Shown here piece after piece: positions 11,109 to 25,525 of a stretch of DNA of 64,000 bases. Position 1 is the first letter of the stretch, and each line of letters begins with the position of its first letter. Source of the stretch: a bacterium (GTDB taxonomy: Bacteria > Hinthialibacterota > Hinthialibacteria > Hinthialibacterales > Hinthialibacteraceae); assembly GCA_963662285.2 (NCBI GenBank), contig CAXXMV010000002.1, forward strand, positions 992,001 to 1,056,000, read 5' to 3'. Below the pieces are notes generated by a model that was not told the origin of the DNA, made no database searches, and saw nothing but the letters and a program-made list of their open reading frames with translations. The translations under genes and the position numbers were made by a program.

Positions 11109-12023
11109 TCACTTTTGAGATGATTTGAAACAAGAAAGATATTTATTTTTAAGTGTCCGATAGCGCTCTAAATTTTCACAAATATGAGTGCTCGCACCAT
11201 GCCAATCGGTCTTAGCTTCAATCATACATTGGATCTTTTTAGCTATTTGCGGTTCTGAAGATAGGTTAAGTTCATTTAGAATACTCTTATCCATTACCAT
11301 CAGAAATCCTGCTGATCTAAGACGCAATAATTCGCTTAATGAATCATCATGAACCGCCTTCACCAGCAAAGGAATAGAAACATCAGGATTACTCAATATG
11401 GCATCCGATGCAGGCCAAAATTTTCTATGTTGTTCCTCAGTCAAATCTTTGTTGTAGGTTTCTTCGACTAAAGAATCTATAGAACATAACATGCCAGCTT
11501 CAGAACCAGATCCAAAAAAAACTTTTGAAAATTTTAGAAACGGTTCGATATCAATGATGCTGGCTGATGAATTTGCAATTGTTATAGCTGCCAATAATAA
11601 ATCTAATTCCAGTTCAGGTTCATTCATCTCCAATGCGCCGTAGTTAATATAACCGTTAAGCCAATCTTCTTTACTCGTCTTGCTTGAAATTGAATTTATT
11701 GTATCCTGCAGGATATATTTAAGATTCGCATCGCCAAGCAATCCGCTGTTATTCAAATCCTGAATCCGTCGACCAACTAAAAATGTAAAACCATTGTACC
11801 TAAGGCGGCTTACATCATCAAACGGAAAGCCCAGTTTCAATTCCTTCGCGGTTGATGCAATGGATTTACAATTCTCAAGAGTACGAATGGACTTCCATTT
11901 TTCAATAGACTGATAAAATTGGCTCTTCTCCAAAGAGTCGCTCATTCCTACATTAACAGCGCCAAATAACAATAATCCGGTTATAAAACTGGTTAACACT
12001 TTATTTCTTTTCATAATTATCAC
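11109..12023 (-). CDS. hypothetical secreted protein (orphan, AT-rich)
   Basis: 304-aa ORF, AAGGAG RBS, N-terminal hydrophobic signal. Confidence 0.7.
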   Translation of the reverse strand: MIIMKRNKVLTSFITGLLLFGAVNVGMSDSLEKSQFYQSIEKWKSIRTLENCKSIASTAKELKLGFPFDDVSRLRYNGFTFLVGRRIQDLNNSGLLGDANLKYILQDTINSISSKTSKEDWLNGYINYGALEMNEPELELDLLLAAITIANSSASIIDIEPFLKFSKVFFGSGSEAGMLCSIDSLVEETYNKDLTEEQHRKFWPASDAILSNPDVSIPLLVKAVHDDSLSELLRLRSAGFLMVMDKSILNELNLSSEPQIAKKIQCMIEAKTDWHGASTHICENLERYRTLKNKYLSCFKSSQK

Positions 12024-12383
12024 TCCTTATGGTTTGATTAATTCGGGAAAGTTGTACCTACTGGCGGATTTGCCCACTCAGCGATAGGGCTAGGGAGATG
12101 CTGCCAACTCCATGCACTGTTTCCTTGATAGCATGAAGCACAATTCCCTTCATCGTCATTGCGAAGAAGCAATTTAACAGAACAGCCTCGAGAAGGAGCG
12201 AGTGCTAAGGGAAGTGTATTTTCTGCCCTTGATTGAGTTTACCTCTTTTATTCCAATAATTTGTCTCAACGTATTACTCAACAAATTGAATTATGATTAA
12301 CGTTCAATTATTAATTGTTGGATTGAAATCAGAATATAAACGTGAATATTATAGGAATTCTTCCGTTTCTCGTTAGTTTTCGT

Positions 12384-12416
12384 TCAAGGGCAGAAAGGAC
12401 GCTGCCCTTGGCACCC
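12384..12416. repeat. degenerate REP-like palindrome, family B
   Basis: tcaagggcag...ctgcccttggcaccc. Confidence 0.6.
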
Positions 12417-12555
12417 GTATTGATCTCTTCATAGCCATTAATAATAACAAAACTTCTGTGTAAAGATCAGCCCCATGCATAAAGCAACAGTATTCAGACA
12501 AAAAGAAAATGTAGTATGCCTTAAACCTTGATTCCCCTCTTTTTTCCTATCCACT

Positions 12556-12582
12556 TGTAAGAAAATACCTCTATTCTCCGTC
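12556..12582 (+). promoter_or_regulatory. candidate ECF-type autoregulatory promoter
   Basis: TGTAAG-N17-CGTC directly upstream of the ECF sigma gene. Confidence 0.4.
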
Positions 12583-12613
12583 ATGTATTAGTGAAAGCGT
12601 TTTTTCAGGCGGT

Positions 12614-13237
12614 GTGAGCTCCACCGAAAACGAATTAATGAGGAAGACTATGAGAAAAGGACGTATGGATTGGGTAACGGAATTATCCGAACGGTATGGG
12701 CGCATGGTGTTTTCAACTGCTTACCGGATTCTGGGGAATCCCCAGGATGCGGAAGACGTCCTGCAGGAAGTGTTTCTAAAACTGCTGGGCAAATGGAACT
12801 GGCGGATAAAACCGGATGCCGTGCGGGATTGGGGCGCTTACCTGCGGGTAATGGCGCTTAGAACGTCAGTCGACTTGTTGCGCAGAAAACCGAAATATAA
12901 AGAGGCGAGTTGGGAACTGGTTCAGGAACAAGAGGCGCCAGGCGGGAGTCCCAGGCATCTGGCCAGCCAAAAACAAAAAGCCCGTTTTCTACGTCAGGCG
13001 CTTGCTCAACTACCAGAGCGTGATGCAAAAGTTTTCGCTATGCGATTCTTCGAGAATTTTGCCTATGATGCAATCGCCGAAAACCTGAACATCAGCGTCA
13101 ACCAGGTTGGCGTGATTCTTCACCGCACACGGGAACGTCTCAAGGAAATTCTACCATCCATAGAGTCCAACATAGATGAATCAAAAAATGATGATACGGA
13201 TCGATCAAGACTTAACAAGGAGATAAACCATGCCTAA
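12614..13237 (+). CDS. ECF sigma-70 family RNA polymerase sigma factor (start uncertain: 12614, 12638 or 12650)
   Basis: Region 2 AYRILGNPQDAEDVLQEVF; region 4 LAQLPERDAKVF...IAENLNISVNQVGVILHRTRERLK. Confidence 0.92.
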   Translation: MSSTENELMRKTMRKGRMDWVTELSERYGRMVFSTAYRILGNPQDAEDVLQEVFLKLLGKWNWRIKPDAVRDWGAYLRVMALRTSVDLLRRKPKYKEASWELVQEQEAPGGSPRHLASQKQKARFLRQALAQLPERDAKVFAMRFFENFAYDAIAENLNISVNQVGVILHRTRERLKEILPSIESNIDESKNDDTDRSRLNKEINHA

Positions 13238-14447
13238 GAACGATAATGATAAACAAGTAGTAGAGTTGTTCCAAAACGATGACATGGGAACTCTTCAGGA
13301 CTGGGTCGATGCCGTGTTGGAAGACGAACCGGATGAAACGCAGTGGCAGGCAGCCCGGTGCAATCTGGCGGCGTCGCTTGAAACTAATACCAAGGAGAAC
13401 TTTATCATGAGAGCCATTCGAAATTCAATATTAGGACAATACCGCTGGGTAACAATAAGCGTCTTTGCAGTTTTAATTATTGCCATTGTCGGTGGAATAG
13501 GACTATGGAATCCCAAGCCGGGCCTGGTCTTCGCAGAAGTTCTGGAGCAGGTCCGACAGGTGCACACTTTCCATTTTACCAACATAGTGGAGATGGAAAA
13601 TCAAACAATGGAAATGCAGACGGATTATATGGATCCCGGTAAACAGCGGTTGGTTATGTCTAATGGCAGTATCATTATTATGGATATGGCGCAGGGTAAA
13701 ACCATCAGCTTGACTCCTTCAGCTAAGATGGCTTCGGTGGTCGATTTTTCCGATGATCCTAACTTGCAGCCTCAGGAAAACCTGATTGAAACGCTGCGCA
13801 AACTTGAAGATGGCGCCGAGGAACTCCTGGGTCAGAAAGAAATGGATGGGAAACTGGTCTATGGATTCAAGGTGATTATGGCAGGCCGGGATTTTGTTAT
13901 CTGGGCCGATCTGAAATCTGGACTCCCGGTACGGATTGAAATTCAGCAAGCCATGTATGGCGCCATGAAGATCATAATGACAGATTTTGAATACAATATA
14001 GATATGGATGAATCATTGTTCAGCCTGGAACCGCCTGCTGATTATAAGTTGATCACACTGGATAAACCAGATTTGGGAGCGCCGACTGAAACTGATCTCA
14101 TCGAGACTATGAAACTGGTCACTAATGATAAAAATAAATCTTTCCCGAAAGATTTGGATCTTATGACTTTATCGAAACAATATGGTTTAAGTAATCCGTT
14201 TCAAAGCGCCAAACCATCCAATGATGATATCGCGAAATTCGCCAACAATTTTGCAAAATTGAGCCGGGGAGCAATGTTTTTCCAACAGAACATAGATAAT
14301 GACTGGCATTACGAACCGGAAGGCAAAAAACTTGGAGATTCAGAGCCGTTATGCTGGTGGAGGGCTGTCAATTCAGAAACCTACCGGGTGATTTATTGCG
14401 ACTTGACTGTTGCGGATGTATCACTGGACGAGTTTGTGAAAGAATAA
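13230..14447 (+). CDS. putative anti-sigma factor with one TM and a LolA-like periplasmic domain
   Basis: Overlaps the ECF gene; single TM; AEVLEQVRQV...IWADLKSGLPVRIE...DFEYNIDMDESLFSLEPPADY. Confidence 0.7.
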   Translation: MPKNDNDKQVVELFQNDDMGTLQDWVDAVLEDEPDETQWQAARCNLAASLETNTKENFIMRAIRNSILGQYRWVTISVFAVLIIAIVGGIGLWNPKPGLVFAEVLEQVRQVHTFHFTNIVEMENQTMEMQTDYMDPGKQRLVMSNGSIIIMDMAQGKTISLTPSAKMASVVDFSDDPNLQPQENLIETLRKLEDGAEELLGQKEMDGKLVYGFKVIMAGRDFVIWADLKSGLPVRIEIQQAMYGAMKIIMTDFEYNIDMDESLFSLEPPADYKLITLDKPDLGAPTETDLIETMKLVTNDKNKSFPKDLDLMTLSKQYGLSNPFQSAKPSNDDIAKFANNFAKLSRGAMFFQQNIDNDWHYEPEGKKLGDSEPLCWWRAVNSETYRVIYCDLTVADVSLDEFVKE

Positions 14448-14470
14448 TTACATATATCTAATTATTATTA

Positions 14471-14511
14471 AGGAGGGAAAGGTAGTTTGATCAAATCTAC
14501 TTTTCCCTCCT
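14471..14511. terminator. hairpin / probable terminator
   Basis: aggagggaaaggtag...ctacttttccctcct. Confidence 0.6.
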
Positions 14512-14516
14512 CAAAG

Positions 14517-14560
14517 AATCCTGCCCCTCCTGAAAATCCTGTATATCCAGATTCAGACAA
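14517..14560 (+). repeat. ATCC(T/A)G 9-bp-periodic repeat ending ATTCAGACAA (family C)
   Basis: Similar copy at 45589-45624. Confidence 0.6.
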
Positions 14561-14916
14561 AAAAATCAATTCATACACATATAAATTGGAAAAATAATAT
14601 GATAACATGTCGAAATCTAAATTGGGTTTTTGTTTATTTATTTGCTTTGTTTGGCATTTATGTATTCTTTTTCTTCCAAACAGGGAATTTGTATAAAATA
14701 TTTATTTTTTCGTATGGATCAATTTTATAAAATACTATCAAAAATCATAATCGCTTCATGGTCATATAAATTCACTTTGATATGGATGATGGGATATTTG
14801 TATCTTTTTTTACCTAGATCAAAGGTTATACGCGTTGTGTAGTTATTATGTTTGAATGGATTTTGTTTATATATTCGTTCAAATTAAATAAATATATTTG
14901 ATGAGGAGGAAATAGT

Positions 14917-15660
14917 ATGTCACATCAACCTATGGATAATGGGAATCAAGCATCAGAGAAAGATTCTCGTTACTATGATGTCAACTTTTTTAAACCCAAA
15001 ACAGACCATTCCCGGTCGAATCGGAACATGATTGTTATTATGGTTTTGATTTGGGCGGTAGCTGTTTTTGGATTCCAGTTTGCACTGGTAATTTTTAATC
15101 AAGCCACGCCGGAAGATAGTTACACCAGTTTTGAAACAGTATGGCCCAAAATTCAGGATGGAAGCGCCAGCGCCAGCGAGCAGCAGGAATTCGCACGGAT
15201 TACGCTTTCTGTTATTGGTAAAAATATTGCCCTCATGGCTGATGATAAAGAAATTTTGCAGGATACCTTGACGCAAACCGTCGTTGGGTTGCTGCCCGCA
15301 GATCAAAAATCGGCGTTTCAAGCAAATCTGGCCGATGACGCCAAGAAACAGCAGGCCGTGACATCCGCTATACAAGCCATAGGATTAAAAGACTCCGGTT
15401 TCGATAAACTGCGCGCTGATTTACTGCCTTCTTCTCTTATTGCTAAAACCTCTGGTAAATTAAGCAAAGATATCCCAGGTATTATGGAACTTTATTTAGT
15501 TCATAATCAAAGTTTTCTGACTAATTTCATCTTTATGGGTTTTCCTTTCCACTATTGGTACACTGCTCAATTCTTGCTGATTCTTTTTGTCGTTATATGC
15601 CTGATATACGCGGCTTTTACTGACAAAATGAATACGAAATATGATTTTGCTGACGAGTAA
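14917..15660 (+). CDS. DUF4212 family solute-symporter accessory protein, extended form
   Basis: LIWAVAVFG first TM; C-terminal FMGFPFHYWYTAQFLLILFV...KMNTKY; directly upstream of the SSS gene. Confidence 0.8.
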   Translation: MSHQPMDNGNQASEKDSRYYDVNFFKPKTDHSRSNRNMIVIMVLIWAVAVFGFQFALVIFNQATPEDSYTSFETVWPKIQDGSASASEQQEFARITLSVIGKNIALMADDKEILQDTLTQTVVGLLPADQKSAFQANLADDAKKQQAVTSAIQAIGLKDSGFDKLRADLLPSSLIAKTSGKLSKDIPGIMELYLVHNQSFLTNFIFMGFPFHYWYTAQFLLILFVVICLIYAAFTDKMNTKYDFADE

Positions 15661-15699
15661 GAGTTTTTTATAACATACATTTTTTAATAGGAGATAAGC

Positions 15700-17382
15700 A
15701 TGATACGATTCAATAAATCGTTACTTATAAGCATGTTGTTAATGCTAGTATCAAGCAGCGCCTTTGCTCAAACTACAAAAGCCACTGAACTTGAGGGAAC
15801 CTTCAAACTCGGTCCGGCTGTTATTCTTATTATATTACTTACCACCTTTGTCATGGTTGGTCTTTTTAACCGCGCCAAAGATACATCGTCCTATTGGGCG
15901 GCGGGACGTAAAATTTCACCTATGGGCGCTGGTATGGCTATCGCCTCTAACTGGATGAGCGCCGCTTCGTTCCTGGGTATGGCCGCCATTATGTACGGCT
16001 CCGGCTACCATGGTCTCTCTTATGTGGTTGGCTGGACTGGCGGTTATGTGCTATTGCTCATCCTGATGGCTGGTCAGATTCGCCGCTTTGGTAAATATAC
16101 CGCAGCGGACTTTATCGGCGACCGTTATTATTCCAGAGGTCTTCGGGCTTTTGGCGCCTGTCTGGCAATTTTTATATCATTCTCATATTGCGTAGGTCAA
16201 TTCGCCGGCATTGGTTTGATGTTCAAATGGATTCTGGGCATCGATTACGCCTATGCGGTTATCATCGGAAGTTCAGTGGTTCTTTGTTATACTCTGATTT
16301 CCGGTATGCTCGGCGTCACCAAGAATATGCAGATTCAATATGTTATCATCATCATTTCATTTATGATTCCTCTGTTTATTCTATGCTATTGCTACGGGTT
16401 TTTCTTTGTATTCCCTCAAATCGGTTATGGCGCAGTTGTCACGGATGTTGTTAAAGGTCTTGAACCTGGAACGGCGGTCAACGCGATGGGGCATGATTTC
16501 GGTATATTGCCGTCGCCGGAATTCGCCATGCCCTGGGATCCGGCAACAGGTAAAACCTCCTTCCAATGGCTCGCCATTTGCTTCTCGTTGATGATCGGTA
16601 CAGCTGGTCTGCCTCATGTTATTCAGCGTTTTTATGTTGTTCCCAGAGCCAAAGACGCCCGTTGGTCAGTTGTATGGGGACTCTTCTTTATCTGTTTGCT
16701 CTATTGGAGCGCTCCGGTTTATTCCGCTTTTGGAAAAATCCTTTCCTCCAATCCAGATGTAGGCAAACTGGCCAAAGACGCCATTGTGGTTTATACCGCT
16801 CAGTTAGGCAATATATACCCGATTGTTGTAGGCTTCCTGGCGGCGGGCGCCGTATCGGCTGCATTTTCTACTGTATCCGGGCTATTAGTGGCTGGCGCAT
16901 CCGCCTTTTCTCATGACTTGTACTTCAAGGTTATTAATCCCCAAGCCAGCGAACGCACTCAAATGTTGATGGCCCGCATCGGCACCATTCTGATGGCTAT
17001 TGCGGTTACGATTGTCGCTTTGATGAAATTGGGATTAATCGCTCAGTTAGTGGCTGTGGCTTTCTCATTGGCTGGCTGCACCATCTTCCCATTGTTCCTA
17101 TTGGGAATCTGGTGGAGCGGTTCAAACCGCGCTGGCGCGTGGGCTGGACTCTTGGCGGGAAGCGCTGTGTCTCTAATCGCTTTGGTATACTTCGTCTGCG
17201 GCGTAATGGAAGTAACTCTTCCAGCTCATGCTTTCATCTCTTATTACTTGAATGCATGGTACTTCGCCTGGTTAGGCGCTCCTCTGGCGATTATTAGTAA
17301 CATCGTCGTCTCTCTGGCGACTGGCTGCGATACGCCGGTTGAAATCAAAGAATTCCTGGCCAAAAAAGTTCATGGCTATTAA
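15700..17382 (+). CDS. actP: sodium:solute symporter, ActP/VC_2705 cation-acetate type
   Basis: GMAIASNWMSAASFLG, RRFGKYTAADFIGDRY, GTAGLPHVIQRFY, AAFSTVSGLL, SHDLY. Confidence 0.85.
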   Translation: MIRFNKSLLISMLLMLVSSSAFAQTTKATELEGTFKLGPAVILIILLTTFVMVGLFNRAKDTSSYWAAGRKISPMGAGMAIASNWMSAASFLGMAAIMYGSGYHGLSYVVGWTGGYVLLLILMAGQIRRFGKYTAADFIGDRYYSRGLRAFGACLAIFISFSYCVGQFAGIGLMFKWILGIDYAYAVIIGSSVVLCYTLISGMLGVTKNMQIQYVIIIISFMIPLFILCYCYGFFFVFPQIGYGAVVTDVVKGLEPGTAVNAMGHDFGILPSPEFAMPWDPATGKTSFQWLAICFSLMIGTAGLPHVIQRFYVVPRAKDARWSVVWGLFFICLLYWSAPVYSAFGKILSSNPDVGKLAKDAIVVYTAQLGNIYPIVVGFLAAGAVSAAFSTVSGLLVAGASAFSHDLYFKVINPQASERTQMLMARIGTILMAIAVTIVALMKLGLIAQLVAVAFSLAGCTIFPLFLLGIWWSGSNRAGAWAGLLAGSAVSLIALVYFVCGVMEVTLPAHAFISYYLNAWYFAWLGAPLAIISNIVVSLATGCDTPVEIKEFLAKKVHGY

Positions 17383-17417
17383 TCGTTATTAGTTGTTCTT
17401 ATGATTGATTGCTTACT

Positions 17418-17450
17418 ACTCACCCCGCTTTGATAAAAAGCGGGGTGAGT
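17418..17450 (+). terminator. terminator hairpin
   Basis: actcaccccgcttt-gataa-aaagcggggtgagt. Confidence 0.7.
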
Positions 17451-17525
17451 TCTATAGAAGGCAAACTGAAATTCTGGCATAATTGCACCAGTATACAATT
17501 CCCCGGATCGTAGGAAAGGAAACTG

Positions 17526-19040
17526 ATGAATCGACTTAAACCTATTCTGTTATTTATTGGGATGAACCTGATATTATCCACTATCATTGATGGCGCCGAA
17601 TCAAATGTTGCCGCGACTAAAGTTAACCAAAACTATCGACTGACGGATAAGTCGCTTTCTGATGCGCTGGCTCAAGACTGGGAACGGATGCATGCCAGTA
17701 AGCAAAGCGTGCTTAAAAAATTCAACGATGATAAATTTGGTATGTTTATTCACTGGGGGCTATATTCCCTGACTTCGGGTGAATGGAAGGGTAAGCGGTT
17801 CAAAGGTCTCGGCGAGTGGGTTATGTATCACGAAACAATCCCACGGGATGAGTATGCCGGGTTGTCCAAACAGTTTAATCCTGACAAGTTCGATGCCGCA
17901 ACATGGGTTAGTTTGGCGAAGAATGCCGGGATGAAGTACATCGTTATCACCGCCAAGCATCATGATGGTTTTGCTCTATTCCCCAGTAAGCATAGTAAAT
18001 TCAATGTTAAAGATATGACTTCCTGCGATTTCGTCCCATTGGATTTACTCTATGAAGAATGTCAGAAACAGGGCATCGGTCTTGGATTTTATTATTCCCA
18101 TGTAATTGATTGGCGCGATGGATGGAATCCGGTCGACAGTAAGCCCGATGAACATGGCCGTGATAAATCAAATCCCATGAATAGCTGGGACCCTTCTGGT
18201 AATACAAGAGAAGAATATTTCCATAACAAGTCCTATCCTCAGTTACAGGAACTTTTGGATCGCTATCCTAAACTTTATTCGATTTGGTTTGACTATTGGC
18301 ATAAAGACAAATATCTCAATCCTCCAGAGAGTTACAAATTCTACAAGATGGTGTATGACGCCCAGCCGGATTGTCTGGTGAATTCACGGGTGGGACATGA
18401 TCTGGGTGATTACATAACGGCTGGAGATAACAATATTCTCGATAAAGGGCAAACAAGACAATGGGAAACTCCAGGTACGCTTAACAACACTTGGGGATAC
18501 AATAAGCATGACACCGACTGGAAGAGCGAAAAAGAACTTATTTATTTGATGGTTAATATCTTTAGCCGGGGTGGTAACTATCTGCTCAATATCGGGCCCA
18601 AACCTGATGGCTCGATCCCGCAGGGAACTATAGATGGCTTCGCCGCCATTGGCCGTTGGATGCGCATCAATAGTGAGGCTGTTTATGGTACCAAAACCTG
18701 GATCGTCACTGATGAAGGTGCGCCGGAATTAACCGTTAACGACACGGTTGATCGTGAAGTAAAAGGCTTTAAGACTGTAGTTACCAGCGAGGACTTTTGG
18801 TTCACCGCCAAGGGGGACGTGGTTTATGCGATTGCTCTGAAAATTCCCGATGACGGAAAGGCGCTGATTAAATCAGTTAATTCCAATCGCCTGACTGACG
18901 TATCCAATGTTTCATTGCTGGGTTATGGTGAATTATCGGGCTGGGAATTTGGCGAAGCTGGATTGGCTTTGTCATTACCCAAAATTAATCTGGATACTAT
19001 TGGTTATGTTTTGAAAATTGAAACTCAGGGCGTGGAATAG
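17526..19040 (+). CDS. alpha-L-fucosidase (GH29), secreted
   Basis: KFGMFIHWGLYS, AGMKYIVITAKHHDGF, IWFD, WETPGT, GGNYLLNIGP. Confidence 0.93.
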   Translation: MNRLKPILLFIGMNLILSTIIDGAESNVAATKVNQNYRLTDKSLSDALAQDWERMHASKQSVLKKFNDDKFGMFIHWGLYSLTSGEWKGKRFKGLGEWVMYHETIPRDEYAGLSKQFNPDKFDAATWVSLAKNAGMKYIVITAKHHDGFALFPSKHSKFNVKDMTSCDFVPLDLLYEECQKQGIGLGFYYSHVIDWRDGWNPVDSKPDEHGRDKSNPMNSWDPSGNTREEYFHNKSYPQLQELLDRYPKLYSIWFDYWHKDKYLNPPESYKFYKMVYDAQPDCLVNSRVGHDLGDYITAGDNNILDKGQTRQWETPGTLNNTWGYNKHDTDWKSEKELIYLMVNIFSRGGNYLLNIGPKPDGSIPQGTIDGFAAIGRWMRINSEAVYGTKTWIVTDEGAPELTVNDTVDREVKGFKTVVTSEDFWFTAKGDVVYAIALKIPDDGKALIKSVNSNRLTDVSNVSLLGYGELSGWEFGEAGLALSLPKINLDTIGYVLKIETQGVE

Positions 19041-19131
19041 AAAAATCCATGGTTTTAGAAAACAACCCCCTCTTGAATTCTCCCCCAAACTTGGGGGAGA
19101 GGGATTTTGTGAGATAACAAGGTGTATCTTT

Positions 19132-19161
19132 GGTGGGTCGGTGAGGCGTGACCCACCCTAC
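19132..19161 (-). repeat. GTAG-type REP, family A
   Basis: Reverse complement is gtagggtgggtcacgcctcaccgacccacc, identical to the 24269 copy. Confidence 0.85.
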
Positions 19162-19240
19162 ACTTAGTTGGTTACGAATTCCTCTCCCAAGATTGGGAGA
19201 GGTAAGGAGAGGGGTGATAGCATTAATTTAAGGAATTCGC

Positions 19241-22153
19241 ATGGCCATTACCAACAGTCATCGTTTCGTGACGCGGGGATTTCTCTTACGGATTATCCTG
19301 CCGACTATTTTGACAATATGTCTCTTTGTTATCACGCTGTTTTTTCTTCTCATTCCAGCCTTTGAGAAAACCATCCTGGACCGTAAGCGCGAGATGATCC
19401 GCGAGTTGACCAATTCGGCCTGGAGCGTTCTGGTCGAGCTCGAAGCCGAAGAGAAAGCCGGGAAACTATCGCAGAGCGAGGCGCAGCAGAGAGCCATCGA
19501 CCGCATCCAATTCCTGCGCTATGGCGATGAGAGTAAGGATTACTTCTGGATTTCTGATATGGCGCCGCGTATGGTGGTTCACCCATACCGCCCTGAGTTG
19601 AACGGCCAGAGCCTGTTAGATTATCAAGACCCCACCGGAAAGAAACTATTTATAGAATTCGTCAATGTAATCAAGGAAAAACAAGAGGGTTACGTCGATT
19701 ATATGTGGCAATGGAAAGACGACGAGACGCGCATCGTACCCAAACTTTCTTTCGTCAAAGGCTTCAAACCCTGGGGCTGGATCATCGGCACCGGCATATA
19801 TATCGAAGACGTCAAAGAGGAAATCGCCAAAATATCTCAGCGCCTTATTCTGATCTCCGCCGCTATTACTGCGCTCATAATTATTCTGCTGCTGTTTATT
19901 ACCCAGCATAGTTTGATGATCGAGAAGCAACGCAAACAAGCTGAACACGAACTTCGGGCATCCCGTGAGAAATACAAAACTCTGGTAGAAGCATCAACCG
20001 AAGGCTTTAGCATGATTGTTGAAAATAAAGTCTTTTACGCCAATCAGACTTTTCTTGATATGCTCGGTTATCAAGCCGGTGAGTTTAAGGGCGCCTCTAT
20101 AGATTGCCTCATGGCTGATGATGGAACCAACAATCATTACTGGAAAGATTTCCTGGAAAACAAACCTGTTCCCCCCAAGTATCTGGCGCAAGTATTGAAA
20201 AAAGACGGAGACATGCTGGATGTGCTTCTTTCCACTTCTCGCATCTCTTTCGCCGGTCAGGACGCCATACTTATAGTCGCCAAAGACGCAACCTATCATC
20301 AGGAACTGGAAGAGGAACTGGGAGATAGCAAAGCAAAATATGAAGCATTGACCAACAATATCAGCATGGGAGTCTTTCGCGCATCCCTTGGAAAGAAAGG
20401 CCGGTTGATTGAGGCCAATCCGGCGGCTGTATCTATTTTCGGTTTTCAGGATAGAGAAGGACTCTTTTCGACGCCGCTAAAAGAATTGATGCACGATGAA
20501 GAAGACTATGTACAATTCCTGCTTGAATTGAACAAAAACAAGTCAGTCAAAAATAAAATTGTTCGCATTCGCAGACAAGATGGAACGGTTCCGATAGTCT
20601 CTATATCTGCGGTTTTGATTGATGATGGCCGCTCCCCGAAATATCTGGACGCCATTTTGGAAGATATTACCTCCCGGGAAAAAATTGATCAGGAACGGGA
20701 TGATTTAATCGTTGAGTTGCAGACTTCGTTGATTTATCTTAATCAACCGATCCGGCATTCAATTCGTGAGATGCTATCCTGCGACATGAACCAATCGATC
20801 AGACGCGCTGCAACTTTGATGACCAAACATAATGCTTCCGCCATTCTGGTTAAATCAGAACAGGGGGATTATCTGGGCGTGGTAACCGACCATGATATCC
20901 GTTCGCGGGTTGTGGCGGAGAACTATGACCAACAAAAACCTGTCTTTGAAATCATGAGTTCACCGCTGATCACTATCTCCGATCATGCTCTTATTTTCGA
21001 AGCGGCTTTGCTGATGCAGCAGAAACGCATTCGCCATCTGGCGATTAAAGATCATTCGGGTGAAATTATCAGTATTATTACTGATAAGGAACTCTTGCAA
21101 GTGCACCGCTATTCTTCCGCTATCCTCTTGCAGGAATTGCAAAAGGCGGAATCGCTCGACGAAATCATGGAAGGATGTGAACGCCTTCCCCTACTGGTCA
21201 AAGCGTTAATAGACAGCGGCGCCAAGGCCCGGAATATTACCCGGATCATCACTACTATTTCCGACGTCATTATCTATAAGGTTATCAATATCGCTTTTGA
21301 TGAACTGGGCGCTCCACCGGCCAGTTTCGCCTTTATCGCAATGGGCAGCGTCGGTCGGGAAGAGCAGACCCTGACTTCTGATCAGGATAACGCGATTATT
21401 TTTGAGGATGTGTCCGCTGATCGTATTGAAGAAGTCCAGACTTATTTTCTCTCTTTTGGAAAGAAGGTCTGCACTTATCTTGATCAAGCGGGATACGACC
21501 TTTGTAAGGGAGAGGTGATGGCCATGAATCCCAAATGGTGTCAGCCTCTTGCGCAATGGCAGGATTATTTCTCTGAATGGATAACCACAGCTGATCCGCA
21601 AGCCTTGCTCGACCTGAAGATATTCTTTGATTACCGGTTTCTTTTTGGTGATGAAGAATTAGTGGAGTCGCTTACTTCGCATCTTCATAAAGTAATAGAG
21701 GGCAAAGCCGCCTTCTTCCAGAATCTGGCTTCCAACACATTATTATTCAAGCCGCCGTTGGGCTTCTTCGGTAATATTGTTGTTAAAGATAAGCAGGGGC
21801 ATCCGGAAACCTTTGATATCAAAGACGCCATGATTCCCATAGTCGACTTCGCCCGGACCTACGCCTTGCAAAAACATATTGTTGAAACCAATACCCTTGA
21901 TCGGTTGCTGCGCCTGTCTGAAATGAATGTTTTTACCAGATCAAGTTATGAAAACGCTGTTCAGTCTTATAATCTTTTGATGCAGTTACGTTTTAAGCAT
22001 CAATCCACCGCCTTGAATCAAAACATCCAGCCGGATAACTTTATCAATCCCAAATCTCTGACCAATATAGAACTGAGTATGTTAAAGAAAACCTTCTCAC
22101 AAATCAGCGATTTTCAATCTAAACTTAGTTTTGATTTTACTGGTTCGGGATAG
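19241..22153 (+). CDS. membrane sensor: TM-Cache_2-TM-PAS-PAS-CBS pair-DUF294 nucleotidyltransferase-DUF294_C
   Basis: Cache LRYG..DYFWI...MVVHPYRPELNG...DPTGK...YMW...PKLSFVKGFKPWGWIIGTGIYIEDV; two PAS (ANQTF, ANPAA); CBS GVVTDHDIR, IRHLAI; NTase GSVGREEQTLTSDQDN; MAMNPKW; IFFDYR; DIK. Confidence 0.88.
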   Translation: MAITNSHRFVTRGFLLRIILPTILTICLFVITLFFLLIPAFEKTILDRKREMIRELTNSAWSVLVELEAEEKAGKLSQSEAQQRAIDRIQFLRYGDESKDYFWISDMAPRMVVHPYRPELNGQSLLDYQDPTGKKLFIEFVNVIKEKQEGYVDYMWQWKDDETRIVPKLSFVKGFKPWGWIIGTGIYIEDVKEEIAKISQRLILISAAITALIIILLLFITQHSLMIEKQRKQAEHELRASREKYKTLVEASTEGFSMIVENKVFYANQTFLDMLGYQAGEFKGASIDCLMADDGTNNHYWKDFLENKPVPPKYLAQVLKKDGDMLDVLLSTSRISFAGQDAILIVAKDATYHQELEEELGDSKAKYEALTNNISMGVFRASLGKKGRLIEANPAAVSIFGFQDREGLFSTPLKELMHDEEDYVQFLLELNKNKSVKNKIVRIRRQDGTVPIVSISAVLIDDGRSPKYLDAILEDITSREKIDQERDDLIVELQTSLIYLNQPIRHSIREMLSCDMNQSIRRAATLMTKHNASAILVKSEQGDYLGVVTDHDIRSRVVAENYDQQKPVFEIMSSPLITISDHALIFEAALLMQQKRIRHLAIKDHSGEIISIITDKELLQVHRYSSAILLQELQKAESLDEIMEGCERLPLLVKALIDSGAKARNITRIITTISDVIIYKVINIAFDELGAPPASFAFIAMGSVGREEQTLTSDQDNAIIFEDVSADRIEEVQTYFLSFGKKVCTYLDQAGYDLCKGEVMAMNPKWCQPLAQWQDYFSEWITTADPQALLDLKIFFDYRFLFGDEELVESLTSHLHKVIEGKAAFFQNLASNTLLFKPPLGFFGNIVVKDKQGHPETFDIKDAMIPIVDFARTYALQKHIVETNTLDRLLRLSEMNVFTRSSYENAVQSYNLLMQLRFKHQSTALNQNIQPDNFINPKSLTNIELSMLKKTFSQISDFQSKLSFDFTGSG

Positions 22154-22205
22154 GAATAGTGGTTATCACAAATCGGATACCCGAATTCCGGGCGCCCACG
22201 AGAGG

Positions 22206-22339
22206 CCATGTCATTAAGTTAAGATATTTCATTCTATCGTTGGTGGTTAGATCAAGGGCTGACCGCATTGCGGTCTTGCCCTTGCCACCCATTCTCTTTT
22301 AATGAGAGAGAAGACAACACGGTTAACTTAATGATATTG
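22206..22339. mobile_element. MITE-like element with 17-bp terminal inverted repeats and 11-bp target duplication
   Basis: TIRs ccatgtcattaagttaa / ttaacttaatgatattg (2 mismatches); flanks cccacgagagg (22195-22205) and cctacgatagg (22340-22350). Confidence 0.6.
22242..22290. repeat. REP-like palindrome, family B
   Basis: ggtgg...atcaagggctgaccgcattgcggtcttgcccttgccaccc. Confidence 0.85.
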
Positions 22340-22364
22340 CCTACGATAGGCGCCCCTAATTGAT

Positions 22365-23171
22365 TCAGGCAAAATACCCCCTCAGTATTTCAGCCGCCAG
22401 ATGTGGTTTCATTTCAAAGCATTCTGAGATCAGGGGTCCCTGGTAATTTATGCTTTGCAATTCATTCGCTAATGTTTTCCAGCAGACGTTTCCTTCGCCT
22501 GGAGCTAAGTGGTCGTCAAAATTTCCATCGTTATCATGGAAATGAAGATTGACCATTTTTGAACCGACCTTTTCTATATATACTGAATATCCCTCATTGG
22601 TGTTGGCATGACCGATATCCAGACAAAAACTGATCCAGTCGCAGTTGATTCTCTCAAAGATAAACTCAAAGTCGCTTACGCAGTCGCCCAGAAAGTACAA
22701 TTCAGTTCCATCGCGTAAAGTTACGGCATTTTCCAACGCCAGATGGACTTCGGCATCCGTGCAGATTCCTTCCAGTTCAGTTAAACTTTTAACCACGGTC
22801 TCCAGCATCTGTTTGCGCAGCCAGGGCCATGATTGGATGCTATTGAAACTTCCCAGGTGGCAGGTGATATGGGTGGCATTGATTTCTTTGGCGATGTTGA
22901 AGCACTTTTTTAAGTAGGTGATATTGGATTTACGAATAAAGAAAATCCGCTCAGCCAGATTGAGGTTGTATGGCGCATGCAAACTTAATGAGATGCCGGA
23001 GTCTTCTGAGAGTTCCCGTAGGTTTTCGATTCGTTTGGTAGTGAAGGTTTGGATGATTGAATGGTCTTTGATTAAATCAATTTCCAAATGGCGTAAACCA
23101 TGCGAGGCGGCGTAATCGAAATATTCTTCAACTGGTTTGTGGTAAATGCTGAAACCAAATGTCAGATTCAT
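22365..23171 (-). CDS. sugar phosphate isomerase/epimerase (AP endonuclease 2 TIM barrel)
   Basis: SLHAPY, LALEN, CLDIGHA, HFHDNDG..DDHLAPGEG, ISE motifs. Confidence 0.85.
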   Translation of the reverse strand: MNLTFGFSIYHKPVEEYFDYAASHGLRHLEIDLIKDHSIIQTFTTKRIENLRELSEDSGISLSLHAPYNLNLAERIFFIRKSNITYLKKCFNIAKEINATHITCHLGSFNSIQSWPWLRKQMLETVVKSLTELEGICTDAEVHLALENAVTLRDGTELYFLGDCVSDFEFIFERINCDWISFCLDIGHANTNEGYSVYIEKVGSKMVNLHFHDNDGNFDDHLAPGEGNVCWKTLANELQSINYQGPLISECFEMKPHLAAEILRGYFA

Positions 23172-23371
23172 CGATTATCCCGCTATATGGCTGCAAGGTC
23201 GGGCGCCATAGATATTCATTTTATTTTATACAATTATTGAGTCACAGCGCTCGACGCAAACTTATAACTTATGGGAAAACATGCTAAATTTACAGATCGA
23301 GAGCGATTCTTGATAATAACATTGTTGTTTTAGAAAATCTCTCCAATGAGTTTAGCATATCATCTAAAGTT

Positions 23372-24250
23372 ATGGTACTAACCTTTATGACTGAATTAAA
23401 AGCGCATTCATCGCATTCGGTAATTAAAAAAGGGATTGACAAGCAATCTATGCATGGTTGGCGGCTGCGGACTCATGAAATAATTTTTGAAGCCGACACT
23501 GCATTTGGCAAATGGTTCGATGTACTGCTGATTGGCTGCATCTTTTTAAGCGTCATCGCGGTGATGCTGGATAGCGTTCGTTCTATCAGTGAAGTTCACG
23601 GCGCCGCCCTCTACCGCATTGAGTGGATATTTACTCTGTTATTTACAGTCGAATATATTCTGCGCTTGCTCTGCATCGGTAGACCATTGCTATATGCCAG
23701 CAGTTTTTTTGGCGTAGTAGACTTGCTCGCTATTTTACCGACCTACATTAGTCTGATATTTCCTGGAAGCCAATATCTATTAGTTATTAGAATCCTGCGC
23801 GTGTTGCGCGTCTTCCGGGTGCTGAAACTGGCGCAATATCTGGGCGAAGCCAATATGCTGATGCAAGCGCTCAGAGCCAGCCGGCGCAAAATCATCGTCT
23901 TTCTTTTCGCGGTGATGACTTTGGTGGTGATCTTCGGATCGGTGATGTACCTTGTGGAGGGGGAAGAGAACGGATTCACCAGCATTCCCAAGGCTATCTA
24001 TTGGTCTGTGGTTACTCTTACAACGGTTGGTTATGGCGACATCTCGCCGCAGACCGATCTCGGCCAAGTTCTGGCCTGCTTCATTATGATAATGGGGTAC
24101 GGCATTATCGCCGTACCCACCGGAATCGTAACCGCCGAACTCACCTTCGCCAAAGGGAAAACCATATCTACCCAGTCATGCCCCCAATGCAGTATGGAAG
24201 GCCACGACTTCGGCGCGGTATATTGCAAGTATTGTGGGGCGAAGTTGTAG
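23372..24250 (+). CDS. voltage-gated potassium channel-like ion transporter
   Basis: S4 RILRVLRVFRVLKL; filter TTVGYGD; C-terminal CPQC...CKYC. Confidence 0.92.
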   Translation: MVLTFMTELKAHSSHSVIKKGIDKQSMHGWRLRTHEIIFEADTAFGKWFDVLLIGCIFLSVIAVMLDSVRSISEVHGAALYRIEWIFTLLFTVEYILRLLCIGRPLLYASSFFGVVDLLAILPTYISLIFPGSQYLLVIRILRVLRVFRVLKLAQYLGEANMLMQALRASRRKIIVFLFAVMTLVVIFGSVMYLVEGEENGFTSIPKAIYWSVVTLTTVGYGDISPQTDLGQVLACFIMIMGYGIIAVPTGIVTAELTFAKGKTISTQSCPQCSMEGHDFGAVYCKYCGAKL

Positions 24251-24268
24251 GATTAATCTTACCCACGA

Positions 24269-24298
24269 GTAGGGTGGGTCACGCCTCACCGACCCACC
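24269..24298 (+). repeat. GTAG-type REP, family A
   Basis: gtagggtgggtcacgcctcaccgacccacc between convergent genes. Confidence 0.85.
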
Positions 24299-24358
24299 AA
24301 AAATCCACTCCAAACATAATACCACCCCACCAAAATCAAATACAAAACCCGGGTTGAA

Positions 24359-25525
24359 TCATTTGCAGCAATGCAAAACCTTGGCGATCTCTTCTTTGGT
24401 ATAAGCGGTCAATCCCCATTTGGTGGCCAGCATAGTTGCGTTTTCTGCAAGCGCTTCTATATCAGTCTCAGGGATATTAGCGTCGGATAGGCTGACCGGG
24501 CAACCGATTTTCTTGAACCATGCTTTGAGCGCTTCGATGCCTTTGGCGGCGGTTGCTACTGGCGAACCTTGGTCTTCGACATCAAATACCCGTTGGGCGA
24601 ATTGGGCGAACTTGGCGGGATTCTTTTGCGAGTTATGGGTCATCCAGCCGGGGATCACGATGGCTAATCCTGCGCCGTGGGCGATATCATAAAACGCGCT
24701 GAGCGAATGTTCGATAGCGTGGTTGGGGAAGCCGCAGGGGCCGATTCCGGCGATAGGCAAGCCGTTGAGCGCCAGCGTGGCCGCCCACATCAGAGTAGCG
24801 CGTCCCTGGTAGTCGGAGGGATTCCCGTGAATGATATCCATGCTCTCCATGATGGAATGAATCAGGCCTTCGACGTAACGGTCCTGAATGGGGAGCCATT
24901 TGTCTGATGTAGTAAAATAGCCTTCGATAATATGAGAAATAGCGTCAACCGCGCCATAGGCGGTATAGGTTGCAGGCACGCTGCAGGTGGTTGTAGGGTC
25001 TAGGATCGAGGTTTTGGGGAATAAATAGGGAGAATTAACATTGAATTTCATTTTCAATTCTTCGTTGGTTATCACTCCGCCGCAGTTCATCTCTGATCCG
25101 GTGGCCGCCAAAGTTAGCACGGTAAGCAGAGGAAGCGCATCCTGTACTGCCCGCGTTCCTAAAAAGAAATCCCACACATCGCCATCATCTTTGGCGCCAG
25201 CGCAAATTGCTTTTGATTCATCCAACACGCTGCCGCCGCCTACGGCGACCACTGCATCCACCGCTTCGCTTTTGGCCAGGGCGATGCCTTCCCGCAGGTG
25301 TGACAAAACTGGATTAGACTTAACGCCGGGAAACTCGACTATCGCAATGTCCGCCCCTTTTAGAGATGTCACTACCTGATCGTAGACGCCATTAGTTTTT
25401 ATGCTTGATTTGCCATAAACCAACAGTACTTTCTTGGCGTACTTTTTGGTTTCCTCGCCAATCCGGGGAATGGTTCCTTCGCCAAAAATGATTCTGGTTG
25501 GATTACAAAATTCAAAATTCTGCAT
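24359..25525 (-). CDS. iron-containing alcohol dehydrogenase (butanol dehydrogenase/YqhD-like)
   Basis: NPTRIIFG, GGGSVLD, TLAATGSEMN, DAISHIIE, HAIEHSLSA..HGAGLA. Confidence 0.92.
   Translation of the reverse strand: MQNFEFCNPTRIIFGEGTIPRIGEETKKYAKKVLLVYGKSSIKTNGVYDQVVTSLKGADIAIVEFPGVKSNPVLSHLREGIALAKSEAVDAVVAVGGGSVLDESKAICAGAKDDGDVWDFFLGTRAVQDALPLLTVLTLAATGSEMNCGGVITNEELKMKFNVNSPYLFPKTSILDPTTTCSVPATYTAYGAVDAISHIIEGYFTTSDKWLPIQDRYVEGLIHSIMESMDIIHGNPSDYQGRATLMWAATLALNGLPIAGIGPCGFPNHAIEHSLSAFYDIAHGAGLAIVIPGWMTHNSQKNPAKFAQFAQRVFDVEDQGSPVATAAKGIEALKAWFKKIGCPVSLSDANIPETDIEALAENATMLATKWGLTAYTKEEIAKVLHCCK

Follow-up and report, generated by a model that had tools for sequence, protein, structure and literature searches.

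The window analysed here comprises 64,000 nucleotides of contig CAXXMV010000002.1 from a member of the Hinthialibacterota. Among the genes on its plus strand are those for a small symporter subunit (14917..15660), a sodium:solute symporter (15700..17382), an alpha-L-fucosidase (17526..19040) and a 970 amino acid receptor (19241..22153); a gene for a TIM-barrel protein lies next to the latter on the minus strand (22365..23171).

The small subunit contains 247 amino acids, and its ATG is preceded by a strong GAGGAGG. It scores 42.4 bits against TIGR03647 (cut-off 26.05), while its DUF4212 match (Pfam, E-value=5e-14) is confined to residues 201–244. Hydropathy analysis revealed two hydrophobic segments (residues 39–57 and 216–234) with 158 residues between them, a loop that is conserved in 11 sequences; this is an unusual long form of the DUF4212 gene, which is present in the same six genomes that bear the receptor and in one 86%-complete genome. 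In alignment the cytoplasmic tails of the subunit possess no invariant Tyr, Thr or Ser, which counts against the protein-tagging model considered below. The 560 amino acid symporter shows a PF00474 domain (E-value=1.8e-52) and belongs to the VC_2705 family (TIGR03648; 486.6 bits, cut-off 320.75), of which it is the only member above cut-off in its genome; among relatives it is 85–88% identical. ActP proper was rejected, since the scores against the two ActP models (211.9 against 750 and 185.8 against 1099) fall far below cut-off. The original prediction of an ActP-type transporter was therefore right as to likeness, but the system is the VC_2705/DUF4212 one of lactate/D-alanine type.

The symporter gene is separated from that of the receptor by the fucosidase gene, which specifies a 504 amino acid GH29 enzyme (Alpha_L_fucos, Pfam E-value=2.8e-79) with a signal-peptide-like N-terminus. 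This gene, absent from the earlier description of the locus, has no counterpart at the loci of the five relatives (5/5) and is probably an insertion and not part of the module. Other carbohydrate genes of the window specify sulfatases, an FGGY kinase and a 3-keto-disaccharide hydrolase. Directly 3' of the symporter gene a G+C-rich hairpin (17419..17449, plus strand), missed by the consensus scan, was read in the sequence and likely marks the end of the transporter transcript. The scan did identify a terminator-like hairpin of 10 pairs, six of them G-C, with a T-rich tail in the gap between the fucosidase and receptor genes (19078..19101, plus strand). That one gene and two hairpins part the receptor from the transporter genes counts against the module model.

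The receptor possesses a transmembrane segment (residues 23–41), an sCache_2 domain (47–199; Pfam E-value=3.2e-41), a second transmembrane segment (202–220), two PAS domains (243–351 and 366–464), a CBS pair (about 501–622; two stretches, E-value=1.5e-18), DUF294 (648–787; E-value=1.5e-47) and DUF294_C (824–966; E-value=5.2e-39). The membrane segments that flank the Cache domain were located with a Kyte-Doolittle scan; PAS_9 matched in two stretches (E-value=2.3e-19), and the second PAS, from residue 366, was also recovered at E-value=3.4e-10. No HisKA, HATPase_c, GGDEF or MCPsignal domain was detected with Pfam at E <= 0.01. This is the architecture, devoid of kinase, GGDEF or chemotaxis output, that had been read from the letters of the DNA, and both Pfam and hydropathy bear it out. 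The extreme E-values and the hundreds of full-length relatives argue that the observation is not due to chance. The receptor is the sole DUF294 match in its genome.

The outer domain (19379..19837, plus strand) looks like an acetate/propionate/pyruvate sensor. It shows significant similarity to two sensors of the acetate/propionate type, 4K08 (E-value=8.8e-39) and 5G4Y (E-value=1.7e-32), alignment to which predicts a pocket for C2/C3 carboxylates, and the best NCBIfam match to the N-terminal part of the receptor is the MctS sensor. All seven propionate contacts of PscD given in PMC5062169 (Y90, W92, H103, F126, Y143, W145 and K156) are retained, as Y101, W103, H114, F137, Y154, W156 and K168, and the seven are invariant in 29/29 aligned relatives, so that the proposal of carboxylate sensing by the Cache domain is supported. 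PscD (5G4Y/5G4Z), McpP, Adeh_3718 (4K08) and MctS thus have the sensor domain of the receptor and an identical seven-residue pocket, but they signal through an MCP domain or a histidine kinase, whereas the output here is of the nucleotidyltransferase type. The same genome also has a paralogous sensor that is fused to an ordinary kinase.

By modelled fold and by motif the output appears as a nucleotidyltransferase of the GlnE/DrrA type. Its predicted catalytic motif, GSVGREEQTLTSDQD (residues 702–716; 21344..21388, plus strand), reads G702-x11-D714-x-D716, and the G, S, R, E, D, Q and D within it, together with the later D797, are invariant in 58/58 sequences. An AF2 model of the C-terminal module (pLDDT 90.3) matched GlnE 1v4a (E-value=2.7e-11), DrrA 6yx5_B (E-value=3.4e-9) and the GlnE AT domain 3k7d in Foldseek; no cyclase or cGAS-like enzyme was among the structural matches listed. 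With VIA-align the top match was again 1v4a, the GlnE N-terminal domain (Z=27.3 over 315 residues), followed by the adenylylating GlnE domain (Z=26.5 over 308) and DrrA (Z=24.7 over 297). Since 1v4a is the removing, deadenylylating half of GlnE, the reaction may run in either direction, a point against the protein-tagging model. The module therefore has in common with GlnE and the AMPylation domain of Legionella DrrA/SidM a fold of approximately 300 residues (Z=24.7–27.3), the motif G-x11-D-x-D and, at the C-terminus, a helical domain for substrate binding, although sequence identity is only 12–14%. The glutamine synthetase or Rab context of those enzymes is lacking here, and the input domains and membrane anchor are new. 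Removal in GlnE is by a second NTase-fold domain, whereas the putative remover at this locus is an unrelated phosphoesterase; the activity opposite DrrA is that of SidD, a PPM-type phosphatase. DUF294_C has been placed in the same clan as the helical C-terminal domain of the GlnE/DrrA type (PMC3710099). The claim of a GlnE-like transferase with an intact active site is thus upheld by the fold matches and invariant motif; likewise, no biochemical result on a DUF294 protein, nor any characterisation of this architecture, was found in the literature searched, as had been anticipated.

The architecture is common and widespread, with at least 577 genomic loci encoding a relative, of which the 80 kept span 19 named phyla. 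Linkage was counted at those 39 loci where a full receptor is flanked on either side by 3 kb or more; since kin genomes are not independent, these counts overstate the number of events. A three-way linkage of receptor, transporter and phosphoesterase is conserved. A monocarboxylate-type SSS transporter is present at 33 of the 39 loci (none was seen at six), as expected from the proposed link of the fusion to such transporters, and a phosphoesterase at 32, rising to 34 after a tblastn re-check that left five in which none was seen; the six and the five count against the module model. Counted from the receptor, all 38 stand-alone phosphoesterase genes of the clustered kinds are at -1 or +1, with one at +2. 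Five kinds of partner were recognised, namely an N-terminal PHP fusion, three Metallophos groups and the AP_endonuc_2 TIM barrel, and among the clustered kinds two never occur in one locus. Mapped onto a tree built from 63 transferase modules, these five kinds need only four changes (shuffled mean 30.6; as low in 0/200 shuffles), indicating that the kind of partner tracks receptor phylogeny.

The gene for the 268 amino acid TIM barrel (AP_endonuc_2; Pfam E-value=1.6e-37) lies 211 bases past the end of the receptor gene at 22153. The two are convergent and are not co-transcribed, which counts against the module model. The original prediction considered the usual exonuclease-like partner to be absent from the window, and no exonuclease family was indeed found in the 41 window ORFs scanned; a conserved candidate of another fold nevertheless adjoins the receptor, and the barrel is probably the supposedly missing partner. 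It adjoins the receptor in 5/5 receptor-bearing relatives (53–68% receptor identity) and in four distant loci from three named phyla. Its orthologs (418–450 bits) occur only in the six receptor-bearing genomes, its own and the five relatives, while none was found in 25 receptor-less relatives (best <= 102 bits); the same six were recovered among 35 genomes of the phylum. In genome G014 the barrel still lies beside the receptor, with the transporter genes on another contig. Loci with the barrel contain neither a clustered phosphoesterase gene (c3, c9, c10) nor a PHP fusion.

The closest homolog of the barrel is MJ1311 (PDB 3WQO), named as a D-tagatose 3-epimerase-like protein, both in sequence (profile E-value=5.1e-31) and in fold (TM 0.84–0.86); to our knowledge MJ1311 itself has no known function. 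Nine invariant residues (H65, H105, E147, D185, H188, H210, D219, H221 and E250) align with H69, H109, E145, D179, H182, H216, D229, H231 and E261 of E. coli Nfo, which are the ligands of three zinc ions. All nine are retained in MJ1311, whose authors reportedly noted their conservation and the lack of a DNA-binding groove, whereas four are missing in a D-tagatose 3-epimerase. Endonuclease IV itself was rejected (22.9 against an nfo cut-off of 129.65). The overall fold is closest to MJ1311 and the ketose 3-epimerases (TM about 0.8); that endonuclease IV ranks only 50 in the fold search, and that hhalign to Nfo gives a probability of 56.8%, both count against reading the barrel as an eraser.

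Soluble COG2905-type proteins (Pflu5625, PP_0354/PP_0353, PA3233; cNMP_binding-CBS-CBS-DUF294-DUF294_C) have the CBS-DUF294-DUF294_C output in common with the receptor, and their genes, too, show a genomic tie to SSS transporters of monocarboxylates, the small subunit of which is DUF485 or DUF4212. An enzyme that cleaves phosphodiesters is likewise their partner, a DnaQ/RNase T-like exonuclease in place of the candidate MJ1311-like barrel here. No biochemical activity of these proteins was found in the literature searched. Where they have a cytoplasmic cNMP-binding input the receptor has TM-sCache_2-TM-PAS-PAS, suggesting that its stimulus is extracellular. According to PMC5715377 and to preprints 10.1101/072470 and 10.64898/2026.09.07.749794, genetics ties the soluble relatives to the use of acetate, propionate, pyruvate and lactate. 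In the first preprint, lactate or D-alanine use requires DUF4212 transporters, which are cofit with a nearby COG2905/RNase T gene; in the second, no genes depend more strongly on MxtR/ErdR than PP_0353/PP_0354, and cells in which these are deleted grow more slowly on propionate and pyruvate. Pflu5625 is within the CrbS/R regulon alongside ActP, but the effect of deleting the soluble homologue of P. fluorescens on acetate growth is negligible (PMC5715377), which counts against the module model.

It is quite probable that the receptor, transporter and TIM barrel work together on carboxylate uptake. The favoured chemistry of this module, with a probability of roughly 0.45, would be a reversible protein nucleotidylation switch on uptake. 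An external C2/C3 carboxylate (of the acetate, propionate, pyruvate, lactate or glycolate class) would be bound by sCache_2, the signal would be relayed through the two PAS domains and combined with an internal ligand on the CBS pair, and the combined input would set the activity of the cytoplasmic transferase. The latter, as writer, would attach a nucleotide monophosphate to a protein; the basis for such a product is the likeness to GlnE and DrrA. Its likeliest target may be the nearby DUF4212/VC_2705 sodium symporter or one of its binding partners. Acs, another target that had been put forward, is not supported, as no AcsA scores above cut-off in the genome (92.5% complete; best 147 bits against 725). 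A dedicated phosphoesterase would then strip the tag, as eraser: here the endonuclease-IV-like barrel, as putative hydrolase of the transferase product, elsewhere a fused PHP domain or Metallophos enzyme, and in the soluble relatives a DnaQ-like exonuclease. The original interpretation as a whole is partly supported.

Other chemistries would suit some of these data. DUF294 might make a small nucleotide signal (cyclic, linear or dinucleotide) that the phosphoesterase degrades and a separate effector reads, controlling the transporter genes. Members of the Metallophos, PHP, HD (the partner family at locus L034), endonuclease-IV-like barrel and DnaQ-like exonuclease families cleave small nucleotides, the soluble relatives bear a cNMP-binding domain of their own, and at five loci (L012, L021, L028, L044, L066) a Crp-type regulator (cNMP_binding plus HTH_Crp_2) lies between a receptor/Metallophos pair and the transporter genes. 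Such a neighbour is nevertheless found in only 5/79 loci and is absent from the window, the family as a whole has no conserved reader protein, and the nearest solved structures are protein AMPylases and a removing domain, with no cyclase or cGAS-like enzyme among the matches listed; we regard this explanation as unlikely. Less probable still is that the transferase extends an RNA 3' end which the partner trims, symporter expression being controlled post-transcriptionally. The DEDDh, PHP, Metallophos and endonuclease IV families do include enzymes acting on nucleic-acid 3' ends, yet the transferase is membrane-tethered, is nearest, among the matches listed, to GlnE and DrrA and not to CCA-adding or poly(A) enzymes, and MJ1311 is said to lack a DNA-binding groove. 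Rfam gave only two matches within 12000–24500, both below gathering scores, and hence no conserved RNA element. RNase T-like features of PP_0353, described in preprint 10.64898/2026.09.07.749794, speak for this reading.

Slightly more doubtful again is the view of the barrel as an ordinary sugar epimerase or isomerase of a polysaccharide-degrading genome, whose place beside the receptor would have no function, the receptor then working without an eraser. In favour of this view, ketose 3-epimerases are among the best matches both in NCBIfam and by fold, carbohydrate genes abound in the window and the two genes are convergent. The epimerase models, however, all score far below cut-off (62.3 against 300), and the barrel has four invariant metal-ligand-like residues more than the D-tagatose 3-epimerase compared. 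Its adjacency in all five relatives and four distant loci, the presence of orthologs in 6/6 receptor genomes against 0/25 without, its persistence beside the receptor in G014 and the want of a clustered phosphoesterase gene or PHP fusion at such loci also argue against this. The least probable of the alternatives is that DUF294 is itself a remover, like the GlnE N-terminal domain, or a non-catalytic nucleotide-binding regulator. That domain is the top structural match, but the Z-scores of the adenylylating GlnE domain and DrrA are close to it; that the catalytic acidic residues do not vary among 58 sequences speaks for an active enzyme, and the regular supply of a separate phosphoesterase (34/39 loci) fits a division between writer and eraser.

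For the reversible nucleotidylation of a protein we propose an analogy with GlnD-PII(GlnK)-AmtB, where nucleotidylation by a transferase of the GlnE/GlnD class and its reversal by a hydrolase set the activity of a membrane transporter. The logic of a transferase and hydrolase partner controlling a transporter would be similar; the locus described here differs in that it has no PII-like protein and its sensor is extracellular.

The gene at 19241–22153 on the forward strand specifies the 970 amino acid receptor, in which Pfam recognised an sCache_2 domain (residues 47–199; E-value=3.2e-41), two PAS domains (243–351 and 366–464), two CBS stretches directly before the transferase (E-value=1.5e-18), DUF294 (PF03445; residues 648–787; E-value=1.5e-47; 161.4 bits against a cut-off of 21) and DUF294_C (PF10335; residues 824–966; E-value=5.2e-39; 133.8 bits against 22.5). 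Hydropathy analysis revealed strongly hydrophobic segments at residues 23–41 and 202–220, by which the Cache domain would lie outside the membrane, with all that follows residue 220 in the cytoplasm. Together with the active-site motif G702...D714-Q-D716 (residues 702–716), these data bear out the architecture that had been read from the DNA in the original prediction. The CBS pair, DUF294 and DUF294_C are shared with the classical soluble proteins of the COG2905 type; these begin with a cNMP-binding domain, for which the N-terminus of the receptor gave no Pfam match, possessing instead the order TM-sCache_2-TM-PAS-PAS. Kinase, GGDEF and MCP families were not found in the receptor at E ≤ 0.01 (Pfam). 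The HisKA and HATPase_c domains of two-component sensor kinases are also absent from it, whereas they are present in a paralogue from the same genome (L100:4899–6761, +; G000:C8), which shows 47% identity to residues 12–288 of the receptor and is followed by a receiver gene and then a hybrid kinase. This genome thus uses the same input module for a conventional two-component path as well.

Some 147 residues of the Cache domain align with the sensors Adeh_3718 (4K08; E-value=8.8e-39) and PscD (5G4Y; E-value=1.7e-32). Glycolate, acetate, propionate and pyruvate are given as ligands of PscD, and Tyr90, Trp92, His103, Phe126, Tyr143, Trp145 and Lys156 as its contacts to propionate, these seven being described as identical in PscD, McpP and Adeh_3718 (PMC5062169). 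All seven have their equivalents in the receptor (Y101, W103, H114, F137, Y154, W156 and K168) and are invariant in an alignment of 29 receptor sequences. A C2/C3 carboxylate is thus well supported, on the grounds of conservation, as the external ligand, in agreement with the carboxylate sensing first proposed.

DUF294 proteins are widespread, and the receptor family, rather than being a one-off fusion, is large and already annotated in databases by its domain names. A protein search with the receptor gave 2259 proteins at E ≤ 0.001 among 7999 candidates scored, and in the 120 matches listed the whole architecture was common to all (46–91% identity), five of them possessing a PHP domain in addition. 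Pattern scanning, with each species represented by one genome, revealed at least 592 stretches, at least 577 of which encode a relative; 80 loci from 19 named phyla were kept. The genome under study has a single DUF294 gene.

The output module (residues 490–970) was modelled with AlphaFold from a 58-sequence alignment (mean pLDDT 90.3). Its closest structural relatives are the N-terminal domain of GlnE (1v4a; Foldseek E-value=2.7e-11, VIA-align Z=27.3 over 315 aligned residues), the adenylylating domain of GlnE (3k7d; E-value=9.3e-9, Z=26.5 over 308 residues with chain 3k7d_B) and DrrA (6yx5_B; E-value=3.4e-9, Z=24.7 over 297 residues). The predicted module thus has the fold of a transferase plus helical substrate-binding domain in common with AMPylases of the GlnE/DrrA type, and also their motif, G-x11-[DE]-x-[DE], which we take to be the active-site signature of these enzymes. 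A sequence-only PDB search reached the DUF294 region with none of the best 60 matches listed. Residues G702, S703, R706, E708, D714, Q715, D716 and D797 are kept in all 58 sequences, which fits an active transferase of the polymerase-beta type with the signature G-x11-D-x-D. Over its first 135 residues the model resembles CBS pairs (Z=15–18.6), many of them crystallised with adenine nucleotides, a likeness that does not by itself tell the ligand here.

The transporter genes lie upstream on the same strand. The sodium:solute symporter (SSS; 15700–17382, 560 amino acids) is assigned to the VC_2705 family by TIGR03648 (486.6 bits against a cut-off of 320.75). It had been taken for an ActP-type transporter, an identity rejected by its scores with both ActP models (NF006903, 211.9 against 750; TIGR02711, 185.8 against 1099.25). 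Directly upstream, separated by 39 bases, is the gene of its small subunit (14917–15660, 247 amino acids; TIGR03647, 42.4 bits against 26.05). This is a long form of DUF4212, in which a conserved loop of 158 residues, probably periplasmic, lies between two membrane segments; the loop region (about 150 amino acids in the alignment) contains the blocks TPE, LGKN, GFDKL and MELYLVHN and has no Pfam match. The cytoplasmic tails show no invariant Tyr, Thr or Ser as a candidate acceptor in the alignment of long forms. An acetyl-CoA synthetase, one of the targets initially considered for the transferase, was rejected for this genome: at 92.5% completeness it contains none above the AcsA cut-off, the best match scoring 147 bits against 725.

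Between symporter and receptor is a gene for a GH29 alpha-L-fucosidase (17526–19040, +; 504 amino acids) with a signal-peptide-like start. Like the family of the symporter and the length of its small subunit, the fucosidase departs from the original description; it occurs in none of the five loci of relatives. A G+C-rich hairpin read in the sequence after the symporter gene (17419–17449) and a terminator-like hairpin after the fucosidase (19078–19101) flank it, because of which four separate transcription units seem to be present, namely transporter pair, fucosidase, receptor and the gene beyond it. An Rfam scan of 12000–24500 gave nothing above gathering score, matches to AdoCbl (17361–17453; 31.4 against 50) and mir-17 falling below it and being treated as chance, and a promoter scan gave 17 sites against a shuffled mean of 20.5, no excess.

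Convergent with the receptor is a reverse-strand gene (22365–23171) for a 268 amino acid AP_endonuc_2 TIM barrel, hereafter the barrel. Soluble DUF294 proteins neighbour a DnaQ/RNase T-like exonuclease; here the conserved barrel is found instead, with no exonuclease family among the 41 ORFs of the window scanned with Pfam. The partner thought to be missing therefore has a strong candidate adjoining the receptor. Full-length receptor orthologs occur in 5 of 30 relatives (53–68% identity), and in all five the barrel is directly downstream and convergent (44–58%). In four of these loci the genes of the long DUF4212 protein and the SSS are adjacent as well; in the fifth (G014) they lie on another contig, the barrel still being beside the receptor. 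Profile matches to the barrel of 418–450 bits were confined to the six receptor-bearing genomes, the other 25 giving at most 102 bits, and the same six were recovered among 35 genomes of the phylum; the long DUF4212 occurs in these six and in G008 (86% complete). These genomes are kin, and such co-occurrence counts are not independent events. Compared with four of the relatives' loci (L095–L098), the symporter, at 85–88% identity, is much better conserved than the receptor (53–68%), the small subunit (57–62%) or the barrel (44–58%).

In order to examine the wider neighbourhood, ORFs were called in the 80 loci and in window positions 8001–31000, clustered by all-against-all BLASTP and named by Pfam. 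In 79 loci (78 fetched plus the window) the caller detected a receptor ORF; on the forward strand of L025 and L075 it gave none. An SSS gene is present in 54 of the 79; its small partner is DUF485 in 39 loci and the long DUF4212 form in nine, the window among them. Of the 39 loci with a full receptor flanked on both sides by 3 kb or more, 33 contain an SSS gene, in 27 within three ORFs of the receptor, which upholds the predicted link between receptor and transporter. Beside the transporter genes in 19 loci (L004, L011, L018, L024, L026, L030 and L040 among them) is a protein of about 405–480 amino acids with a signal peptide and no Pfam match; it is absent from the window and, being beta-rich and ending in F, looks like an outer-membrane porin.

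A recognised phosphoesterase was counted in 32 of the 39 two-sided loci, in 34 after a tblastn re-check, and in 61 of the 79 overall; cluster counts are lower bounds, four such genes or domains in the high-GC loci L005, L010, L020 and L050 having been recovered by tblastn. The kinds are an N-terminal PHP fusion (19 of 79 loci, plus L050 by tblastn), a Metallophos protein directly upstream on the same strand (cluster c3; 21 loci), two further Metallophos clusters directly downstream (c9, six loci plus three by tblastn; c10, six loci) and the AP_endonuc_2 barrel (c11; five loci, including the window); in L034 alone an HD-domain gene takes their place. Of the 38 stand-alone cluster members, all but one, found at +2, occupy position -1 or +1, and no locus has two clustered kinds together. 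The PHP-fused receptor of L069 is followed at the contig end by a partial AP_endonuc_2 ORF (11183–11827, +; E-value=1.2e-7) outside the barrel cluster, and this locus may depart from the pattern of a single partner kind.

A maximum-likelihood tree was built from 63 transferase modules, those of 58 of the 79 loci and of the five relatives, leaving out 21 loci whose receptor ORF was shorter than 940 amino acids or, in L063, failed the motif filter. The five partner kinds required four changes on this tree, the minimum possible (shuffled mean 30.6; as low in 0 of 200 shuffles), and the PHP, c9 and c10 groups each correspond to one starred branch. Each receptor clade therefore keeps its own phosphoesterase, the partner fold having been exchanged a few times. 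In our view this indicates that the receptor needs a partner able to cleave phosphodiesters, of whatever fold, and swaps between unrelated phosphoesterase folds point to the partner's job, the cleaving of a phosphodiester made by the transferase.

The barrel falls below the cut-off of every curated model. It is therefore not an endonuclease IV (TIGR00587, 22.9 against 129.65; NF002198, 27.4 against 244), nor is it a proven ketose 3-epimerase (D-psicose 3-epimerase model, 62.3 against 300), and its overall fold is nearer to epimerases (TM ~0.8) than to Nfo (rank 50), a ranking which does not decide function. Ten aligned sequences have H65, H105, E147, D185, H188, H210, D219, H221 and E250 invariant. 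Profile alignment with E. coli Nfo (probability 56.8%, E-value=1.1e-4, 197 columns) places all nine on identical residues (H69, H109, E145, D179, H182, H216, D229, H231 and E261), which in endonuclease IV presumably hold its three zinc ions. The D-tagatose 3-epimerase 8XIV is without equivalents of H65, H105, D219 and H221. All nine are retained in MJ1311 (3WQO), the closest PDB relative (profile E-value=5.1e-31, single-sequence E-value=1.6e-17, TM 0.84–0.86), whose structure paper reportedly remarked on the conservation of metal-ligand residues and the absence of a DNA groove. These residues, and the place of the barrel in the series of partners, suggest that it is a phosphoesterase, giving TIM barrels of the MJ1311 type a first functional lead.

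In Pseudomonas, Vibrio and Shewanella, DUF294 genes belong to regulons for acetate, propionate, pyruvate or lactate uptake, with only mild mutant phenotypes. According to Price et al. (preprint 10.1101/072470), DUF4212 genes are cofit with the downstream symporter, needed on D,L-lactate or D-alanine, and in some cases also cofit with a "COG2905 (RNAse T domain protein)" close by. The CrbS/R regulon is described as including Pflu5625 alongside ActP and a DUF485 protein, the deletion of Pflu5625 having a negligible effect on growth on acetate (PMC5715377). PP_0353 and PP_0354 are presented as the genes most dependent on MxtR/ErdR, their deletion causing moderate propionate and pyruvate defects and their function being called unknown by the authors (2026 preprint 10.64898/2026.09.07.749794), and a P. 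aeruginosa preprint mentions PA3233–PA3235 as one cluster with ActP. The literature searched gave no biochemical study of DUF294/COG2905 proteins, PA3233, Pflu5625 or DUF4212, consistent with the lack of characterisation noted at the outset.

The analysis confirms the feature and shows its parts to be conserved. As the best-supported reading, receptor and partner would form a writer/eraser pair controlled by an external carboxylate and an internal CBS ligand and acting on uptake by the SSS transporter. The transferase would nucleotidylate a protein, which is favoured because GlnE and DrrA, the nearest enzymes in structure, are known to AMPylate proteins. Another protein-nucleotidylating enzyme is GlnD, whose HD domain, like SidD, sets a precedent for the removal of such tags by unrelated hydrolase folds. 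As target we favour the SSS transporter, since nothing else in the neighbourhood is constant and no AcsA above cut-off was found in this genome. In its full form the proposal, tentative at a probability of roughly 0.3, is that in many phyla the receptor joins external substrate to internal adenylate status and tags the SSS transporter or its small subunit, that the tag is removed by a dedicated eraser whose fold has been exchanged on at least four occasions (PHP, three Metallophos lines, endonuclease-IV-like TIM barrel, DnaQ-like exonuclease in soluble forms), and that Na-coupled carboxylate uptake is thereby gated post-translationally.

The product of DUF294 may instead be a small nucleotide signal. 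This would fit the Crp-type regulators (cNMP_binding plus HTH_Crp_2; cluster c12) encoded between the receptor/Metallophos pair and the transporter genes in five loci (L012, L021, L028, L044 and L066), the likeness to protein AMPylases speaking for a protein substrate. The transferase and its partner may also tail and trim RNA 3' ends, a role to be set against that same likeness, or the DUF294 domain may have a reversed or non-catalytic role, against which its invariant active-site residues may be weighed. The barrel, too, may have a function unrelated to the receptor, a view to be balanced with its constant place in the relatives.

Were tagging of the transporter true, it would be a new class of transporter regulation and would provide the first functions for DUF294, MJ1311-like barrels and possibly DUF485/DUF4212. 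The Cache-fused form makes the input explicit through a known ligand pocket, and membrane anchoring puts the DUF294 enzyme physically where the transporter is. The window contributes one more fold to the set of partners, the endonuclease-IV-like barrel, together with the long variant of DUF4212. An open question is in this way narrowed to a few bench assays with three defined proteins.

The transporter genes are immediately preceded by an ECF sigma factor gene (12614–13237, +), which overlaps by eight bases a 405 amino acid ORF (13230–14447, +) with one membrane-like segment and no Pfam match, probably its anti-sigma factor. Several large ORFs of the window, such as 2185–5628 (1147 amino acids), are without a Pfam match. 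The region 27747–63206 is rich in polysaccharide-use and related genes, among them three sulfatases, a sulfotransferase, a 3-keto-disaccharide hydrolase, an acetyl xylan esterase, GH77 and three N_methyl (pilin-like) proteins, and it also encodes three B12-binding radical SAM proteins and one radical SAM protein without a B12-binding match.
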